A stretch of DNA of 13,541 bases from Candidatus Methylomirabilales bacterium (GTDB lineage: Bacteria > Methylomirabilota > Methylomirabilia > Methylomirabilales > CSP1-5). Shown here one piece after another: positions 6,136 through 13,541 of the stretch. The position numbers and the translations under genes are program-made. How positions within the stretch are numbered: position 1 is the stretch's first letter; every line of letters begins with the position of its first letter. A model generated the notes under the pieces. It did not search any database. It was not told the origin of the DNA and was given only the letters and a program-made list of their open reading frames with translations. The stretch lies in NCBI GenBank assembly GCA_046758505.1, contig JBHIAH010000074.1, positions 1-13,541 of the forward strand. Reading direction: 5' to 3'.

Positions 6136-9100
6136 ATGGTGGGACGGATCCGGAATTGGCGGGTGGGAGGCGGGTTTCTGGCGATCGCCATTGTTCTGGC
6201 GGCGTGCCAGCAAAGCCCGGAGGTCCAGAAGGAGGGGTATCTCACAAGCGGCCTCGAGTACCTGAAAGCGCGCAAGTACGACGAGGCCATTATCGAATTC
6301 AGAAACGCCGTGCAGGTCGACCCCCGATTTGGCGCCGCCTACGCCGCCCTCGGGGTTGGGTACCAGGGGAAAGGCTGGGTGCACGACGCGCAATGGGCGT
6401 ACGCCAAGGCCATCGAGATCGACCCCCGGAACCTGCAGGCGCATCTCGATCTTGCCAGGCTTTACCGAGAGGTCGGCCTCACCGAGGACGCCATCCGGAC
6501 TGCCAAGAAAGCGATCGAGATCGACGACGGAGTCGCCAGCGCCTACGTCGTTCTCGGGCGGGCGCTGACGAGGAAGCGCGAGTTTGTCGAGGCCAAGCAG
6601 GCCATCGACAGGGGCCTTCAGCTCGACCCCGAGGCTGCCGAAGGATACCTCGCCCTCGGGGAATGGCATCTGCTGCAGCGGCAGAGCCCGGAAGCGCGGG
6701 CAAGCTTTGAAAAGGCACTCGAGCGTGATCGGGGGCTTGTCGAGGCCCACCTGGGCCTGGGGAGCCTCGCGCTCGCCGCCCAGCAGGTGGACGAAGCGCG
6801 CGCGGCCCTTCAGACGGCCATCAGCATCCAACCCACGAACGTGGTGGCGCGCGTGAGCCTCGCCCGGCTGTATGCCTCGGAGGGGAAGACCGCCGAGGCG
6901 ATCGTTGAGCTCCAGGCCCTCCCCCGGGCCCGGGTCCCGGACCTCCGGGTCGCTCTCCCACTGGCCGCCCTGTACAACCGGGATGGCCGATTCAAGAAGA
7001 CCGTCACGCTGCTGAGCCCAGCGACGAAGCTCTTCCCGAACGTTCCCGACCCCTATTACCTGCTGGGGGAGGCCTATCTCGCGCTGAAAAAAATCGACCC
7101 GGCCCTCGGGGCCTTCCAGGAAGTGGTCGGCCTGCAGCCGAACAGCCCGCTGGCGCAGTTTCGCCTGGGCCAGGCCCTCGCCCGGGCAAACCGGTTTCGC
7201 GAAGCGGCGACCCATCTCGAGGCGGCCCGCAACCTGGGACAGGGCCCCGCCGCGGTGCGCTTGGAGCTGGCGGCGGTCTATCTCAAACTCGGGCGGGCCA
7301 CGGCCGCCCTCGACGAGGCCAAGGCGGCCTCCGCGGTGAACCCCAAGGAACCCCTGAGCTACAGCTTGATGGGCTTGAGCGCCATGGCGACGCAGCAGTA
7401 CGATGCGGCGCTCGAATATTTCTCGAAGGAACGGATCCTGACACCCGATTCCCCCCAAGCGTACGTCCACATCGCCCGGCTCTACGATGTGCAGGGAAAA
7501 ACCGACGAGGCGCTCGAGGCGTACCGGACCGCTATCGCCAAAGACCCCGCGCGCCTGAGCAGCCGCATCGCCCTGATCCGATCGCACCTTGCCCATCAAC
7601 GGTGGCAGGAGGCCGTCAAGGTCGCCCAAGCCGCCCTCGAGGTCGCGCCGAAGCAGCCCGAGATCCTGACGCTCCTCGGTGCCGCATACATGGGCGCGCG
7701 GCAGCCAGAGCAGGCCAGGCCGGCTCTGTCAGCGGCCCTGAAGGCCGACCCGACGTACCCTCCCGCCCATCGCACCCTCAGCGCCCTGGCCGTCCTCGAG
7801 GGGAAACGGGAGGAGGCCATCACCCACCAGGAAGCCATCCGCGAGGCCCACCCGAAGGATCTCTCTGCCTTGATCGGCCTCGCCTCGCTGTACGCCGCAG
7901 GGGGGAACACCCCCAAGGCCATCGAACGCCTGCAGGCGGCCCTCGATGCCCGGCCGGATTTATCCATCCTCAAGCTCGGGCTGGCCGAGTTGTACGTCCA
8001 GGGGGGCCAGTACGAGCTGGCCATCCAGCGGGCCACGGAGGTCCTCAGAGAAAATCCGAAGGTGGCCCGGGCGTATCTCGTCATCGGGCAGGCCCACCTC
8101 GAGACGCGAAAAATCGACGCAGCCTCCAAGGCGATCCGACAGGCCGTGGCGCTGGCGCCCGACTCGGCCCCGGCGCACCGTCTGCTGGCCCGCACCCTGC
8201 TCCAGCAGCAACGGATCGGTGAGGCCATCGCCGAGTACCAGCAGGCCCACACCCTCAAGCCGGATCTCCCCGGACTCGTCGAGGAGCTTGCCCTCGTCGA
8301 GGCCGCGCAGGAAAAACCCCGGGCCGTGGGGGCCATCATCGCCAAGGCCAAGGAACTCGTGCGCGATCACCCCAAGAACGCGTTTCTCCACAACATCCTG
8401 GGGGCCGCGTACCTGGCCGGGAAGGATCTCGCGCAGGCCGAAAAGGCACTGCAGGAGGCCCTGCGCCTCAATCCCCGGATGCTCACCGCCCGCGTGAACC
8501 TGGCCCAGGTGTACGCCGCCCAAAATCAGGGAGACCGGGCGTGGCAAGAGATCAAACGCGTCCTCAAGGTCAACCCGCGCCACGTGGTGGCGAACGCCCT
8601 GGCCGGGCAACTGGCTGCGGCCGGAGGGCGCGTCGAGGAAGCCACGCGCTACCTGGAGACCGCGCACGAGGTCAATCCGTCCCTGGGCCGAGTCAACCTC
8701 GCCTTGGCGCGGCTCTATCTCGCCCGGGGGCGGCTCGGCGATGCCGAGCGGCTGATTGGTACGGTCCTCGCGAGTCATCCGAAGGTGGCCGAGGCACATG
8801 TCGTGAAGGGGATGCTCGCGTTACGCCGGGGCCGCAACACAGAGGCGATCCGCGCCTTCACAGAGGCGGTGCGCCTGAATCCCTCCCTCGCCGAGGGGTT
8901 CTTTGGCCTGGGCAATGCCCAGAACGCCACCGGGGCGTACGACCGCGCCGCACAGGCCTACCAGAAGGTCGTCGCCTTGAATCCCCGTCACTTCGGCGCC
9001 CTGAACAACCTCGCCTGGATCTATGCACAAAAGAAAGACAACCACGTCCTTCACGAGGCGCTCACGTTGGCGGAGAAGGCCCTGGCGCTTCAGCCGAAGA

Positions 9101-9354
9101 ACGGGCTGGTTCTCGACACGGTGGGGTACGTGCTGTACCGGCAGGGGAAGCTCGAGGAGGCCGAGGCGCGTCTCAAGCAAGCGCTGGAGGTCCTCCCCCA
9201 TCAGGCGAGCATTCTCTACCACCTGGGGCTCGTCGCCCACGCCCAGGGGCGCAACGACGAGGCCGTAACCGCCATCCAGCGCGCCCTGCTCCTCAATCCC
9301 GACTTTGACGGATCCCACGAGGCCCGCCTGCTGCTGAAGCAGATCTCGGGGTAA
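6136..9354 (+). CDS. Large tetratricopeptide-repeat lipoprotein (PrsT-like, PEP-CTERM/EPS system)
   Basis: 1072 aa, with GAGGT RBS. Lipobox VLAA-C, then continuous TPR units (AIIEFRNAVQVDP, ALEAYRTAIAKDP, etc.). C-terminal ALNNLAWIYA..LDTVGYVLY..ILYHLG is typical of PrsT-like proteins. Confidence 0.9.
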   Translation: MVGRIRNWRVGGGFLAIAIVLAACQQSPEVQKEGYLTSGLEYLKARKYDEAIIEFRNAVQVDPRFGAAYAALGVGYQGKGWVHDAQWAYAKAIEIDPRNLQAHLDLARLYREVGLTEDAIRTAKKAIEIDDGVASAYVVLGRALTRKREFVEAKQAIDRGLQLDPEAAEGYLALGEWHLLQRQSPEARASFEKALERDRGLVEAHLGLGSLALAAQQVDEARAALQTAISIQPTNVVARVSLARLYASEGKTAEAIVELQALPRARVPDLRVALPLAALYNRDGRFKKTVTLLSPATKLFPNVPDPYYLLGEAYLALKKIDPALGAFQEVVGLQPNSPLAQFRLGQALARANRFREAATHLEAARNLGQGPAAVRLELAAVYLKLGRATAALDEAKAASAVNPKEPLSYSLMGLSAMATQQYDAALEYFSKERILTPDSPQAYVHIARLYDVQGKTDEALEAYRTAIAKDPARLSSRIALIRSHLAHQRWQEAVKVAQAALEVAPKQPEILTLLGAAYMGARQPEQARPALSAALKADPTYPPAHRTLSALAVLEGKREEAITHQEAIREAHPKDLSALIGLASLYAAGGNTPKAIERLQAALDARPDLSILKLGLAELYVQGGQYELAIQRATEVLRENPKVARAYLVIGQAHLETRKIDAASKAIRQAVALAPDSAPAHRLLARTLLQQQRIGEAIAEYQQAHTLKPDLPGLVEELALVEAAQEKPRAVGAIIAKAKELVRDHPKNAFLHNILGAAYLAGKDLAQAEKALQEALRLNPRMLTARVNLAQVYAAQNQGDRAWQEIKRVLKVNPRHVVANALAGQLAAAGGRVEEATRYLETAHEVNPSLGRVNLALARLYLARGRLGDAERLIGTVLASHPKVAEAHVVKGMLALRRGRNTEAIRAFTEAVRLNPSLAEGFFGLGNAQNATGAYDRAAQAYQKVVALNPRHFGALNNLAWIYAQKKDNHVLHEALTLAEKALALQPKNGLVLDTVGYVLYRQGKLEEAEARLKQALEVLPHQASILYHLGLVAHAQGRNDEAVTAIQRALLLNPDFDGSHEARLLLKQISG

Positions 9355-9814
9355 GTTAGTCGAGGGTTGAGAGTTGAGAGTGAAATTGTCGAGTGTTAAG
9401 AGTCGAGAGTTGAGAGCTTCAGGAGTTTGACTCTCAACTGTCGATTATAGACTCTGGATTATCGACTATTCGCTCTCGGCCCTCGACCATCCGCTATCGA
9501 CTCTCGACTCTCCGCTCTCGACCCTCGACCATCCGGTATCGACTCTCAGCTCCTGACGGTTCATGGTTCATGGTTCATGGTCCACGGTTCACTGAGTGCT
9601 GAGTGTTGAGTGTTGAGGGCTTAGAGGTTCACATCCTCGATCTTGGCTGTCCGCTGTCCGCTGTCCGCTGTCCGCTGTTCACTATTCGCTCTCGACTCTC
9701 AACCATCCGCACTTGACTCTCCGCTCTCAACCCTCCGCTCTCAACTCCTGACGGTTCATAGTTCATGGTTCATAGTTCATGCAAACTCGAAATTCGCAAT
9801 CCGAAATCCGAAAT
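9355..9814. repeat. Mosaic heptamer (7-bp) tandem-repeat array 1
   Basis: About 60 consecutive 7-mers starting right after the TAA at 9354. Blocks: YGAGAGT, its complement TCRACTC/TCCGCTC, TTCATGG x3, AGTGYTG x3, TCCGCTG x4 (9650-9677), TTCATRG-type x4, and YCGMAAT x4 (9787-9814). Confidence 0.95.
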
Positions 9815-9946
9815 CTCCCGGTCATCGGAGTGCCCCCTTCCGCTATGCAAAAATTGCTTGCACAGGGTGGGGGTCCGTACTACAAAGGAATAACGAATAC
9901 AAGGGGTAACGGAGGGCCCCACCAGGGGCATGGGTGAGGAGGCCAG

Positions 9947-10732
9947 GTGGGCCGCGGGCAACGGATCCTGATGGTGGATAACGACCCGGTGATCCTGGAA
10001 GCCGTGGGCGACATGCTCGCGGCGAAGGAGCACCAGGTCACCAAAGCGCGGGACGGCCTCGAGGCGCTGGAGCAATTCCGGAAGAGCTCATTTGATCTCG
10101 CGATCCTCGACATCGTGGTTCCCAAGATCGACGGTCACGACCTCTGTCGGCTGATCAGGCAAGACGAGCGGGGCCGCCTGCTGCCCATCATCGCGTTCAC
10201 GGCCCTGGCCCCGCACGATGTCGCCAAGCTCCCCGGCCTCAGCGCCGATGCCTATGTGGCGAAGGGACCCCTCACGGTGGTGATCCCCAACATCCTGGAC
10301 GCGATCAAATCGGTCATGACCAGCCGACGAGGGCATCAGGGGCAGCGGATTTTTGGCTACGAGGGGTTCCGCCCTCGGCGGATCGTGAGCGAAATGTTCG
10401 ATTTGAAGCGACATTACCAACGTCTCGTGCATGCCGTCGCCGAGGTGGTCATCGAACTCGACGCCCAGGCAAAGATCCTCTCGGCAAACCCCATGGCCCT
10501 GCGACTGATCGGGCGATCCGAGGCCGAGGTGACAGGCCTGGCGTTCTCGGACCTGCTCACCCCCAGGGACCAGGCCGACTTCCAAGGCACGCTGGCGCAG
10601 CTCTCAGAAGACCCTCTCGGGGGGGCGGCGATGAAAGATCTCACCATAGCAGGCACGCGACGGCGCCTGCGGTGCCAACCGGTCCTCGACAACGGAGAGA
10701 TTGCAGGCTTCCTCGTGACGGCGGGCTCCTGA
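9947..10732 (+). CDS. Response regulator receiver + PAS domain protein with no output domain
   Basis: 261 aa. GTG start with GAGGAGG RBS. REC motifs ILMVDND, AILDIVVP, FTA, YVAKGP. PAS-like VIELDAQAKILSANPMALRLIG..EVTGLAFSDLL. Confidence 0.88.
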   Translation: MGRGQRILMVDNDPVILEAVGDMLAAKEHQVTKARDGLEALEQFRKSSFDLAILDIVVPKIDGHDLCRLIRQDERGRLLPIIAFTALAPHDVAKLPGLSADAYVAKGPLTVVIPNILDAIKSVMTSRRGHQGQRIFGYEGFRPRRIVSEMFDLKRHYQRLVHAVAEVVIELDAQAKILSANPMALRLIGRSEAEVTGLAFSDLLTPRDQADFQGTLAQLSEDPLGGAAMKDLTIAGTRRRLRCQPVLDNGEIAGFLVTAGS

Positions 10733-10753
10733 CGACCCCGCCCGGAGGATCGT

Positions 10754-10942
10754 ATGTCTTTTGCTTTGGGCGCAATCCTCGGGTTCTGCCTGGGAGTCCT
10801 CTGCATGGCCTTGCTATTCCTGACCAGGGCCTCCGAGGCCCCGACCCCGCCGCCCGCGGACACACCGGTCGAGGAATTGAACCCACCCCATAGCGTAGTC
10901 AGCCCCTCCGAGGCTCCTTCAGCCCCCTCCCTTAGGGAGTAG
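10754..10942 (+). CDS. Small single-pass membrane protein (62 aa)
   Basis: Strong GGAGGA RBS, 21 nt after the previous stop. N-terminal hydrophobic helix with GxxxGxxxG (LGAILGFCLGVLCMALLFL), then a Pro/Ser-rich tail. Confidence 0.7.
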   Translation: MSFALGAILGFCLGVLCMALLFLTRASEAPTPPPADTPVEELNPPHSVVSPSEAPSAPSLRE

Positions 10943-10950
10943 CGCGCCAG

Positions 10951-11118
10951 GGATTTCGAATTTGGAATTTCGGATTGCGGATTTAAAAGAATAGACTTAG
11001 GATTTGGAATTTCGGATTTCGGATCGCGAACTTCGAATTTGGCAAGAGCAGTTTTAAATCCGAAATTCGAAATCCGCTGGCACTGAACTCTCGACCCTCC
11101 GCACTCGACAGTCAACAG
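10951..11118. repeat. Heptamer array 2 (GGATTTC/GAATTTG blocks, inverted AAATCCG block, short TCGACCC-type tail)
   Basis: 5 units (10951-10985), a 14-nt gap, 6 units (11000-11041), a 14-nt gap, 3 inverted units (11056-11076), then tgaactc tcgaccc tccgcac tcgacag tcaacag. Confidence 0.92.
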
Positions 11119-11232
11119 ATGAGGGTGTCACGAATCTTTACATGTTCGGTCATCCTTACCTGCCCCTGCGGATGCCCGTGGGATGGGCAAGGAGCGCCGC
11201 CGGTCATCTCCCGCTGTCTCAGATGCAAAATG

Positions 11233-11326
11233 TGTCGGAAAACGTTACAAGAGGCCTGAGGCATAACACTCCCTGCTTTCAATCAGATGCGCGCACCGCT
11301 CCTTTTCGGTGTCGGCGCTCTTTACG
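11233..11326. promoter_or_regulatory. Two TGTCGG-N6-TTACR boxes, candidate activator sites
   Basis: TGTCGG-AAAACG-TTACA (11233-11249) and TGTCGG-CGCTCT-TTACG (11310-11326), upstream of the consensus sigma-54 motif at 11460. Confidence 0.55.
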
Positions 11327-11459
11327 ATTTCGACCACTTTGCACGTCCTTTTTGTCCGATCGTCCCCATCTTTTTCGAGAAAAGTGAGGGGAAAAGACTT
11401 TTACGAATAAAACGGTTACGGCGAACTTGCGGCGGTCCATGCCTGCACCTCGCAATCGC

Positions 11460-11475
11460 TGGCACGGGAGTTGCT
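11460..11475 (+). promoter_or_regulatory. Sigma-54 promoter (perfect consensus)
   Basis: TGGCACGGGAGTTGCT matches TGGCACG-N4-TTGCW exactly. Confidence 0.88.
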
Positions 11476-11843
11476 GCCTCCCGTGTTGAAGCGTGCATGA
11501 TGCGTGAATAGGCCTGAGGTTACGTCGAGGCGCGATGGTGGAAACCGCATTCTCCACACGGACAGGACCCCAGGCCCCCCACCCCCATGTTGTATTCCAG
11601 ACTCAGAACGCTTTGCGCCACACACCGAGGCTTTACTGTGGCTTCATCAAGCCTTCTGCTGTAGAGCACGTAGGTCTCGCCCGTTTAGCATCAGCCACAC
11701 AGACGTGGCATATCCATTGGAGCCTGACTGTTCCTTCGACCGGGGGATTGGGCGGGAACTAACTTGGCAAGACCTGGCAGGCGCCCCTCCGGGGCCCGAT
11801 CATTGTGACTCCGACGCCGCCGTCCGTGCAGAAAGGCTGCGCC

Positions 11844-12596
11844 ATGATGCCGGTCCAACATACGGTCCTGATCATTGATGATAACCCCCTGGTTCGGGAG
11901 TCGTTTCGTGATCTGCTCGAGGCGGAGGCATTTTCCGTAGCGGAGGCCAGCAATGGGGCCGAGGCCATACTGTGGTTTCAGCGGGGGACCGCAGACATGA
12001 TCCTTCTCGACCTGAAGATGCCCGTCATGGACGGCCGGAGCTTTCTCGAGTACCGGCTGCGCCAAACAGGAATGCGGCGTATTCCGGTGCTCGTCGTGAG
12101 CAGCGCGCCCGACGACCCCGGGGTCCGCCCCGTGATGCTGCGCCTGGGGGCGGACCGCCTGTTGCAAAAGCCGGTCCGGCGCGAGGAACTCCTGCATGCC
12201 ATGCAGGGAGTCCTCGCACGACCCGACACTTCGGCTATCCCGCCCCCAACCGAGGCCCAGGACAACGGCGTGCGCCAGGACGCCCGCCTATCGTTCAATG
12301 TCCCTATTCGGGTCCGCACGCACTCCTCCCTGGGGGCCACCGGGATGCTCCGCGACCTGAGCGCCGGGGGGCTCGGCGTGTATCTCTCTCGACGGCTCGA
12401 GCCGCGAGAAACGATCACCGTCAGCCTGGACGTCGAGGGCCGCTCCCTAGCCTTGACGGGGTTCGTGCAGTGGGCCGCCGAAGACCGAACGGCCATGGGG
12501 TTTCGCCATGGGATCCGGTTTACCGAGAAGCAGGAGGACACGTTTCCCCTGTATACGTATTCATTCTTTCGCGAACACTCGGGGGCGCCTAATTAG
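11844..12596 (+). CDS. Response regulator receiver + PilZ (c-di-GMP-binding) domain protein
   Basis: Canonical REC (IIDDN, LLDLKMPVMDG, VVSS, LQKP). PilZ motifs RQDAR (RxxxR) and DLSAGG (DxSxxG), plus GFVQW and HGIRF. Start moved from the track's 11805 to ATG 11844, which has GAAAGG 7 nt upstream; ATG 11847 is also possible. Confidence 0.9.
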   Translation: MMPVQHTVLIIDDNPLVRESFRDLLEAEAFSVAEASNGAEAILWFQRGTADMILLDLKMPVMDGRSFLEYRLRQTGMRRIPVLVVSSAPDDPGVRPVMLRLGADRLLQKPVRREELLHAMQGVLARPDTSAIPPPTEAQDNGVRQDARLSFNVPIRVRTHSSLGATGMLRDLSAGGLGVYLSRRLEPRETITVSLDVEGRSLALTGFVQWAAEDRTAMGFRHGIRFTEKQEDTFPLYTYSFFREHSGAPN

Positions 12597-12613
12597 GAGC
12601 GGACCGGGGAGAG

Positions 12614-12784
12614 GAGAGAGTCGAGAGTTGAGAGTGAATAGTCGATAGTCCAGAGTCAATAGTTGATAGTTGAGAGTCGATAGTTGAGGATTCGTAACTC
12701 TAGACCCTCGACTCTAGACCCTCAACACTCAACAATTTCACTCTCAGCCCTCAACCCTTCACACTGGACACCCGACACGGGGAC
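12614..12784. repeat. Heptamer array 3, quasi-palindromic (TYGAKAG block followed by complementary CTCRAC-type block)
   Basis: tcgagag ttgagag tgaatag tcgatag tccagag tcaatag ttgatag ttgagag tcgatag, then tctagac cctcgac tctagac cctcaac actcaac aatttcac tctcagc cctcaac. Starts about 18 nt after the stop at 12596. Confidence 0.93.
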
Positions 12785-12785
12785 A

Positions 12786-12800
12786 GTGCAAAGTTTTCAT
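12786..12800 (+). promoter_or_regulatory. Candidate upstream activator site
   Basis: GTGCAAAGTTTTCAT, identical to the reverse complement of 1819-1833, 121 nt upstream of the 12922 sigma-54 motif. Confidence 0.55.
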
Positions 12801-12921
12801 GGTCACCATAGAAACGGGAGCCGGGCAGTGTCCCGGCCGCTCCCCCGCACCATGGGGAGAACCGATCCAAGTCCTTGGAAGTACGAGGCTCGTCGCGTAG
12901 AAAACGGCGCTCGGGTCTGGC

Positions 12922-12937
12922 TGGCACATGGTATGCT
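12922..12937 (+). promoter_or_regulatory. Sigma-54 promoter candidate 1 for the PEP-CTERM gene
   Basis: TGGCACATGGTATGCT: TGGCAC, GG-N10-GC and TGCT. Confidence 0.8.
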
Positions 12938-12955
12938 AAAGGAATATTCCTCTCA

Positions 12956-12971
12956 TGGCATGATTCTGGCT
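12956..12971 (+). promoter_or_regulatory. Sigma-54 promoter candidate 2 for the PEP-CTERM gene
   Basis: TGGCATGATTCTGGCT: GG-N10-GC, similar to the 1579-1594 motif (TGGCAT..CTGGCW). Confidence 0.6.
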
Positions 12972-13018
12972 ATTCAAACTCGGCCGATTTTTGAGGATCA
13001 AGGATTCAGGGGGAAGCA

Positions 13019-13541
13019 ATGAGAATCAAGGCCATATCCCAAATAGCTTGTCTCATCATGGCGCTGATACTTACACCGCTTCCCCCTATTGCCGAAGCAG
13101 CCATAATCACATCGACCCTCCCAGAATTCAGTGGTAATGGCACTGTCACTGTTGGAGTATTCATGTATGACATTCCCGTCGGCGAGAACATCGTGATGGC
13201 AACTATTGGAGGGACCTTCGGAAATTTAGTGGCGGAAACTAGCGCGCCCGTGGATGTCTTTCTGGACGGTCTGCAGGTGGCGCAATGCGCAGTTAAGGCG
13301 CTGTGCTCGGGAGCTCCTCCTCCAGATCCATGGTCATTTACATTCGAGCCAGCCCACTTTCCGTTGTTGGCAGATGGGGAAGCAGAACTCGCAGCGATTC
13401 AGACGTCAGGGTTCGCCATCCGACTGGGCGAGACGACGCTCACTGTGGAAACAGCACAGATTCCCGAGCGCCGCCCGGCGCCAATCCCGGAGCCGGGGAC
13501 GCTGCTGCTCCTCGGATCCGGCCTGGTGGGGATCGGCGTCG
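13019..13541 (+). CDS. PEP-CTERM sorting-domain protein (3' end beyond window)
   Basis: Open from ATG 13019 (AGGGGG RBS) to the edge. Signal peptide MRIKAISQIACLIMALILTPLPPIAEA-A, a body of about 120 aa with a Cys pair (QCAVKALC), then IPEPGTLLLLGSGLVGIGV, a classic PEP motif plus TM helix. Not in the ORF track because no stop lies in the window. Confidence 0.93.
   Translation, partial: MRIKAISQIACLIMALILTPLPPIAEAAIITSTLPEFSGNGTVTVGVFMYDIPVGENIVMATIGGTFGNLVAETSAPVDVFLDGLQVAQCAVKALCSGAPPPDPWSFTFEPAHFPLLADGEAELAAIQTSGFAIRLGETTLTVETAQIPERRPAPIPEPGTLLLLGSGLVGIGV

Follow-up and report, generated by a model that had tools for sequence, protein, structure and literature searches.

Positions 1 to 13,541 of contig JBHIAH010000074.1 (C74), the 13,541-nt stretch of DNA called the window below, come from a Candidatus Methylomirabilales bacterium (assembly GCA_046758505.1, here G000; 2.99 Mb in 149 contigs, 62.8% GC, 96.8% complete) and carry two inverted copies, A and B, of a hairpin built of 7-nt units (heptamers). 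Other contigs of G000 are labelled in the same way (C32, C70, C119 etc.) and the copies C and D introduced below lie on C32. Profile matches of its proteins mark the window as a locus for exopolysaccharide of the XrtA/PEP-CTERM type. It contains a TIGR03013 sugar transferase, a beta-barrel protein, a polysaccharide export protein and a sigma-54 activator, and divergently from the latter follow five genes on the forward strand. These encode PrsT, the TPR protein of the XrtA/PEP-CTERM system (6136..9354; TIGR02917 above cut-off), a REC-PAS response regulator (9947..10732; PF00072 and PF00989, orthologues 71-80% identical), a 62-aa open reading frame (ORF) with a hydrophobic N-terminus and no family, which is conserved in the relatives G006 and G003 (10754..10942), a REC-PilZ protein (11805..12596; PF00072 and PF07238) and a PEP-CTERM protein truncated by the contig end (13019..13541; PF07589).

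Copy A (9358..9480) begins 3 nt past the stop codon of PrsT (9354) and consists of a purine-rich arm with an irregular 8-nt unit (9358-9417), an 11-nt loop and a pyrimidine-rich arm from 9429 (fold of 9355-9560, z = -4.47). Copy B (12609..12758; fold of 12597-12770, z = -3.20) is inverted relative to A, has its own loop of 25 nt, is closest to copy D and begins ~13-20 nt past the stop codon of REC-PilZ (12596). We could confirm the description in a first-pass annotation of this DNA that both copies stand just after a stop codon and enclose REC-PAS, the small ORF and REC-PilZ, and the inverted matches given there were exact on recomputation. Positions 9363-9417 match the reverse complement of 12704-12758 at 46/55 (8 transitions, 1 transversion) and 9429-9477 that of 12630-12678 at 43/49 (5 transitions, 1 transversion), making transitions 13/15 of the mismatches, and the longest exact run common to A and B is 15 nt. 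The annotation had ascribed this similarity to common descent and not to a shared consensus 7-mer, with a unit-shuffle test set beforehand as a possible refuter. We permuted the 7-nt units of A within each arm in 3000 trials and scored the local alignment with B. The observed score of 103 (shuffle mean 66.6) was reached by 15/3000 shuffles for the whole element, and arm by arm the first arm was equalled by 93/3000 and the second by 1/3000. As shuffled arrays so seldom align as well, A and B share descent beyond a common 7-nt vocabulary. A 10-mer spanning the irregular 8-nt unit has 7 sites in the 2.99-Mb genome, 4 of them inside the four copies, and other arrays using the same 7-nt word score at most ~52 bits. 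As a proof of descent the transition excess is weak, since neighbouring units inside the left arm of A show the same bias (5/6).

The genome-wide BLASTN search proposed earlier revealed the two further copies, C (C32:9766-9869) and D (C32:10757-10911), with matches scoring equal to or above that between A and B. They are direct repeats, each directly after a stop codon, and flank a membrane-protein gene which we take to be TauE-like, NCBIfam giving no confident name. The pairwise scores are A-B 103, A-C 113, A-D 104, B-C 65, B-D 156 and C-D 124, and in the 52-nt right arm only two sites are informative, both supporting AC|BD and 0 supporting AB|CD. Because B-D and A-C exceed A-B and the informative sites group AC|BD, A and B are not each other's closest copies and hence not a dedicated pair. 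All four copies fold as hairpins, 4/4 follow a stop codon and both orientations occur. They are 77-90% alike, with 43-47 of 52 positions identical in the best arm, and they are mosaics of one another, the loop being common to A, C and D, the left arm to A, B and D and the right end to B and D. In an alignment of the four no shared terminal motif or target duplication was seen, the ends entering different heptamer runs. A 17-nt diagnostic pattern has 4 exact matches in G000, which are the four copies, 0 matches in 13 same-genus genomes and, over the 52 remaining genomes of the order, 2 one-mismatch matches, and a metagenome scan with a 20-nt pattern gave 7 loci, all in unrelated non-array DNA judging from their flanks. 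Genes of the far end of C32, presumably encoding undecaprenyl-diphosphate synthase, isopentenyl-diphosphate isomerase, dCTP deaminase and ribonucleotide reductase, share one contig with REC-PilZ in G003, G006 and G007. Because of this linkage in relatives all four copies probably belong to one neighbourhood, spanning ~21 kb plus the gap between the contigs.

The copies are part of a much larger set of arrays. In G000 we found 193 strict period-7 arrays against 0 in a shuffled genome and 367 loose period-7 regions against 16 after shuffling, while exact triple tandems number 39 at period 7 and at most 5 at any other period from 5 to 11. Dozens of unit words are in use. A dispersed, palindromic, heptamer-built element, as one half of the first-pass interpretation had it, is thus borne out by four hairpin-folding copies among hundreds of heptamer arrays. 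Arrays of a similar kind can be found throughout the family and in a large part of the order, 31/41 genomes having a match to the spacer. Their content differs between close relatives: G009 and G012 have near-identical flanks and wholly different arrays in the same spacer, the spacer of copy D measures 2 nt in G004 and 10 nt in G013 and holds unrelated arrays in G006 and G010, and spacers orthologous to those of the copies are either empty or filled with unrelated arrays. The arrays thus turn over fast. At one site where C32 carries a heptamer array between two core genes, G006 has an ORF instead (L036:11711-12676), which we take to be Y1 transposase-like from its motif.

Similar arrays of G000 lie close together. 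From 94 array pairs of at least 70 bits we removed 27 at contig ends or with homologous flanks, and in the remaining 67 we observed 13 pairs no more than 20 kb apart where 0.67 were expected; at 85 bits it was 9/22 against 0.22. The rate at 70 bits falls with distance, from 9/254 below 5 kb to 4/337 at 5-20 kb, 2/206 at 20-50 kb and 0/190 at 50-150 kb, and between contigs it is 52/58353. Inverted orientation is found in 5/13 near pairs. One inverted pair on C3 (64091-64263 and 69794-70028), 5.7 kb apart and 93% alike over 130 nt, beats A/B and is the youngest inverted pair in the genome; its shared patch starts and stops within heptamer runs, and the two arrays bracket what is presumably an ABC peptide-transporter gene set. 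Similar local clusters exist on several other contigs, and such clustering of near-identical arrays points to short-range copying between arrays.

A and B thus belong to a group of four sister copies, each a heptamer hairpin of 115-160 bp without a gene, and we regard it as probable, with room left for other readings, that these spread locally from array to array among nearby intergenic spacers. Short-range copying is favoured because it explains the mosaic copies, the fuzzy ends, both orientations and the clustering. Gene conversion or template switching would copy a patch from one heptamer array into a nearby one, with the shared 7-nt words supplying microhomology on either strand. The patch would overwrite or extend the recipient array in either orientation, and slippage might afterwards add or remove whole units; a putative role of the hairpin at the mRNA 3' end would be secondary. 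A more far-reaching version, which we put forward only tentatively and think rather unlikely, is that bacterial heptamer arrays are more than products of slippage and form an intragenomic population copying patches in either orientation, with a preference for arrays within ~5-20 kb. A dedicated mechanism of short range would do the copying, perhaps with the help of the PF05635 four-helix-bundle proteins encoded between such arms.

Several observations weigh against local copying. The mechanism is read from patterns, with no copying event observed, and local hopping of a mobile unit predicts identical clustering. The adjacency of C32 and C74 comes from synteny in relatives, without a bridging contig. 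The 13 near pairs are not independent and reduce to ~9 clusters, so that a binomial p overstates the case, and a single C9 cluster, whose members have non-heptamer DNA in common as well, supplies four of them. There (C9:21915-26218) four direct copies of 60-160 nt, each a non-heptamer start followed by heptamer runs, alternate with small ORFs, and the cluster resembles a cassette array or repeated insertion at a single target. The C14 pair (41211-41335 and 45502-45619) may ride on the ends of insertion sequences, an array lying there between what we take to be an IS3-type terminal repeat and a transposase-like frame, so insertion sequences may carry arrays as well. At 60 bits the decay is non-monotonic, with 4/190 at 50-150 kb, and in 54/67 top pairs the two arrays are either more than 20 kb apart or on different contigs. 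In addition, the clustering of similarity is strong in G000, barely seen in G005 (610 kb of 2.8 Mb), where a single pair 443 bp apart gives 1/9 below 5 kb and 0/552 otherwise, and absent from G037 (800 kb of 5.3 Mb) with 0/275 pairs within 20 kb.

The other half of the first-pass interpretation took A and B for terminal inverted repeats of an invertible or insertable 3.1-kb cassette with REC-PAS and REC-PilZ, whose recombinase would be encoded elsewhere in the genome. There is indeed genuine inverted similarity around three genes, G000 has four matches to the tyrosine recombinase family PF00589, and an opposite-strand joint 9434/12688 that resembles an inversion is listed in all four DNA runs (X1-X4), which belong to one study and may be what the genome was assembled from. 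Rare variants are dropped from the contigs of these runs, so that a rare inversion would be missed, and no RNA run carrying the region is listed alongside them. The joint, however, is copy D: its record differs from B at 11 positions, as many as were counted for D on C32, and this record (541 nt, depth 30.9 in X1) can be placed on C32 without a single mismatch. Run contigs bridge both A (8000-9837 and 8000-9671) and B (9653-12939 and 11090-13518) in the assembled orientation, and neither an excision joint nor a true inversion joint is among the 15 joints (of 32) listed for the four runs. None of the tyrosine recombinase matches is on C74 or C32, the resolvase/invertase family PF00239 has no match in G000, and A and B, with their short exact identity, are not sister copies. 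The comparison of relatives for an empty site or an inverted gene order, also proposed earlier, showed neither among those compared. G006 and G003 have PrsT, REC-PAS, the small ORF and REC-PilZ in the order and direction of G000, with an extra ORF before REC-PilZ and the element at neither end of the block from REC-PAS to REC-PilZ. In G007, G009, G011, G012 and L171 REC-PAS stands directly opposite the sigma-54 activator without PrsT, followed by REC-PilZ in G007, G009 and G012, where the contig extends that far. PrsT occurs at this locus in 2/7 relatives examined, the other 5 running from the activator to REC-PAS, and its C-terminus at E 1e-40 was found in 2/13 same-genus genomes. Because REC-PAS is kept in five relatives where PrsT is missing, the signalling genes are the constant and PrsT the variable part of the locus. 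Against 13 orthologous loci the element scores at most 48, with its signature word in 0 of them. It is thus very likely that A and B do not delimit a mobile cassette; the cassette reading, which we now hold to be very improbable, is largely refuted and the genes between the copies are likely ordinary residents.

The main rival to local copying is a non-autonomous mobile unit, REPIN-like or resembling a MITE (a miniature transposable element with inverted repeats) and possibly a gene-less derivative of a PF05635 cassette, which would be moved by a trans-acting protein and prefer nearby post-stop sites; we judge it unlikely, though well worth considering. PF05635 is found in 51/66 genomes of the order, and among the best-scoring 30 of about 200 matches period-7 tracts lie on both sides in 20/30 loci (26/600 controls) and inverted arms in 15/30 (22/600 controls). 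The single PF05635 gene of G000 (C116:4019-4306) also has inverted heptamer flanks, the genome holds 12 Y1 transposase-like genes (PF01797), and the same spacer occurs empty and filled. On the other hand, that PF05635 gene has an internal TAG, the best score of B against the 30 PF05635 flanks is 38, which gives no sequence link, and C74 and C32 have no PF05635 gene, the 11-25-nt loops of the copies being without an ORF. As partners the Y1 transposases had to be rejected, because none of the 12 adjoins an array: they lie 1025-37049 nt from the nearest one and have their own non-heptamer terminal repeats. Neither RVT_1 nor PDDEXK_3 (PF13366) has a match in G000, and a mobile unit fits poorly with copies that are mosaics of one another and have no conserved termini or target duplication. 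It is far less probable that the C32-C74 block was recombined in from a donor lineage with a genome-wide family of such arrays, their clustering being the repeat dialect of the donor. The family is limited to one neighbourhood and the surrounding PEP-CTERM genes vary from relative to relative and, within the runs, even from allele to allele; the family is, however, in none of 65 genomes of the order, the 7 metagenome matches lie in non-array DNA, and comparable clusters exist elsewhere in G000. We give slightly less credit still to hairpins selected as RNA elements at gene 3' ends, where they would serve stability or RNase III processing, or let A and B pair over a long range within one transcript. 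All four copies do follow stop codons and fold well, and A and B cofold more strongly than they fold separately (-167.8 vs -103.8 kcal/mol). Orthologous spacers, however, are empty or hold unrelated arrays, and between A and REC-PAS lies a conserved motif resembling a promoter, which would suggest separate transcripts for A and B. Rfam gave nothing at gathering score (two matches, E 0.17 and 0.96, far under cut-off), and a promoter/terminator scan gave no terminator consensus at the hairpins. Least credible of all is that arrays with one 7-nt word in common grew independently and converged. Unit shuffles can equal the first arm by itself, and the transition bias inside the left arm of A fits it too, whereas the second arm, the whole element and the low scores of other arrays with that word speak against it; it is refuted because the irregular unit and, in three copies, the non-periodic loop are shared.

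Local copying between arrays, the reading we prefer, concerns a class of repeats that is known from other bacteria, so the hope of the first-pass annotation for an undescribed system has to be given up. Cyanobacterial STRR sequences are comparable heptamer repeats. A report of heptamer long simple-sequence repeats (LSSR) by Mrazek et al. (2007) is summarised in PMC4679880, and the Beggiatoaceae also carry intergenic heptamer repeats (PMC4679880). Features of the STRR/LSSR type in G000 are tandem 7-nt units at many loci above chance, the post-stop placement of 4/4 copies, the dominance of period 7 and length change by whole units, one X3 contig being without one 7-nt unit at 9646 (a single observation). 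Such slippage accounts for growth in place; it does not explain inverted sister copies that stand at separate loci and have loops in common. The heptanucleotide repeats of Xanthomonas (GGGAATC) and Nostoc are mostly intergenic 7-nt tandems close behind stop codons, as in G000, and in Xanthomonas they often form inverted hairpin-capable pairs, 70 of them in one xanthomonad and 75 in another (Rehm et al. 2015, PMC4692102). Unlike G000, with its dozens of words, rapid replacement between relatives and locally clustered sister copies, xanthomonads have one dominating word of G-quadruplex type and keep 83% of sites between two species (PMC4692102). Geobacter metallireducens and G. bemidjiensis have lineage-specific families of 4-5 tandem 7/8-nt repeats, often as opposite-strand pairs at variable distance and several per spacer, which have been read as regulator binding sites or regulatory RNAs (PMC2700814, PMC2996986). 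They resemble the elements of G000 in their tandem 7/8-nt units, opposite-strand pairs and lineage specificity, and a legend describes some miscellaneous families as 'located near each other' (PMC2700814, PMC2996986); unlike here, descent and local copying of irregular copies are not analysed in the text compared.

The likeness to repetitive extragenic palindromes (REP) and MITE drawn in the first-pass annotation holds for the inverted arms forming an intergenic hairpin and fails for conserved ends, target-site duplication and an adjacent transposase, and sharp MITE-type termini are missing as well. REPINs are likewise intergenic hairpins of ~100 bp made of two inverted arms and multiplied within the genome, with a highly conserved 16-mer and hundreds of roughly randomly placed copies, clusters of them lying beside RAYT genes (Bertels and Rainey 2011, PMC3116915). 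The element of G000, by contrast, has 4 clustered, less uniform copies made up of heptamers in tandem, and no Y1 gene adjoins any of them. Closest in layout is the PF05635 four-helix-bundle ('23S rRNA IVP') cassette, with a purine-rich arm, an insert and a pyrimidine-rich arm, a post-stop position and the same range of 7-nt words, whereas the G000 element has a short loop in place of a gene and no sequence link to 30 cassettes. In literature titles and abstract openings we found no description of PF05635 genes between inverted heptamer arms. Nor was a paper found on distance-dependent copying of heptamer arrays, in a coverage that did not extend to subscription journals, to the first publications on STRR and by Mrazek, or to the supplements on Geobacter. 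What is new here is a clue to local copying of sister arrays in both orientations; the repeat class itself is known, though unexplained.

The spacer between PrsT and REC-PAS continues behind copy A with a mosaic of arrays of several other 7-nt unit types (9481..9815), which has an internal duplication (9494-9557 resembling 9689-9752) and modules in common with contigs C32, C70 and C119. Array 2 (10951..11113), within the supposed cassette, contains a 91% inverted match (11009-11041) to 9782-9814, and a short period-7 tract lies just upstream of the sugar-transferase gene (1520-1554). Downstream of the spacer arrays and ahead of REC-PAS we found the promoter-like motif (9847..9883, forward strand), which is present in 6/9 orthologous spacers and on which a sigma-70 scan made no call. 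It may act as the REC-PAS promoter, and this suggests that copy A is positioned between the PrsT stop codon and that promoter. In G009 and G012 heptamer arrays also occur between a motif of this type and the REC-PAS start codon, and REC-PilZ is in tandem duplicate in both. A REC-PAS paralogue (66% identical) is encoded at C63:3111-3884 of G000 and also in several relatives. Within 12750-13041 fixed differences separate the runs from the assembly at three positions (12782, 12801 and 12808), the runs also carry another, diverged allele upstream of the gene for the PEP-CTERM protein, and the PEP-CTERM gene content around REC-PilZ varies among relatives. Most of the 12 Y1 loci are tightly flanked by their own short inverted repeats, the right-hand one often overlapping a stop codon and sometimes in tandem.

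If the cassette reading had been true, the locus would have had a recombinase-free switch for cyclic di-GMP signalling genes, which the evidence removes. Inverted heptamer arrays around genes are instead to be expected as by-products in genomes of this kind, and caution is advisable as they can mimic inversion joints in assemblies. The four copies also bear on the old question of how 7-base repeats originate in the spacers of bacteria and multiply there. Sister copies that have irregularities in common and lie in both orientations within tens of kb would mean that arrays are copied between loci, with a measurable signature in array similarity that declines with distance. If a dedicated short-range copying is true, the four copies would be a datable footprint of this spread.

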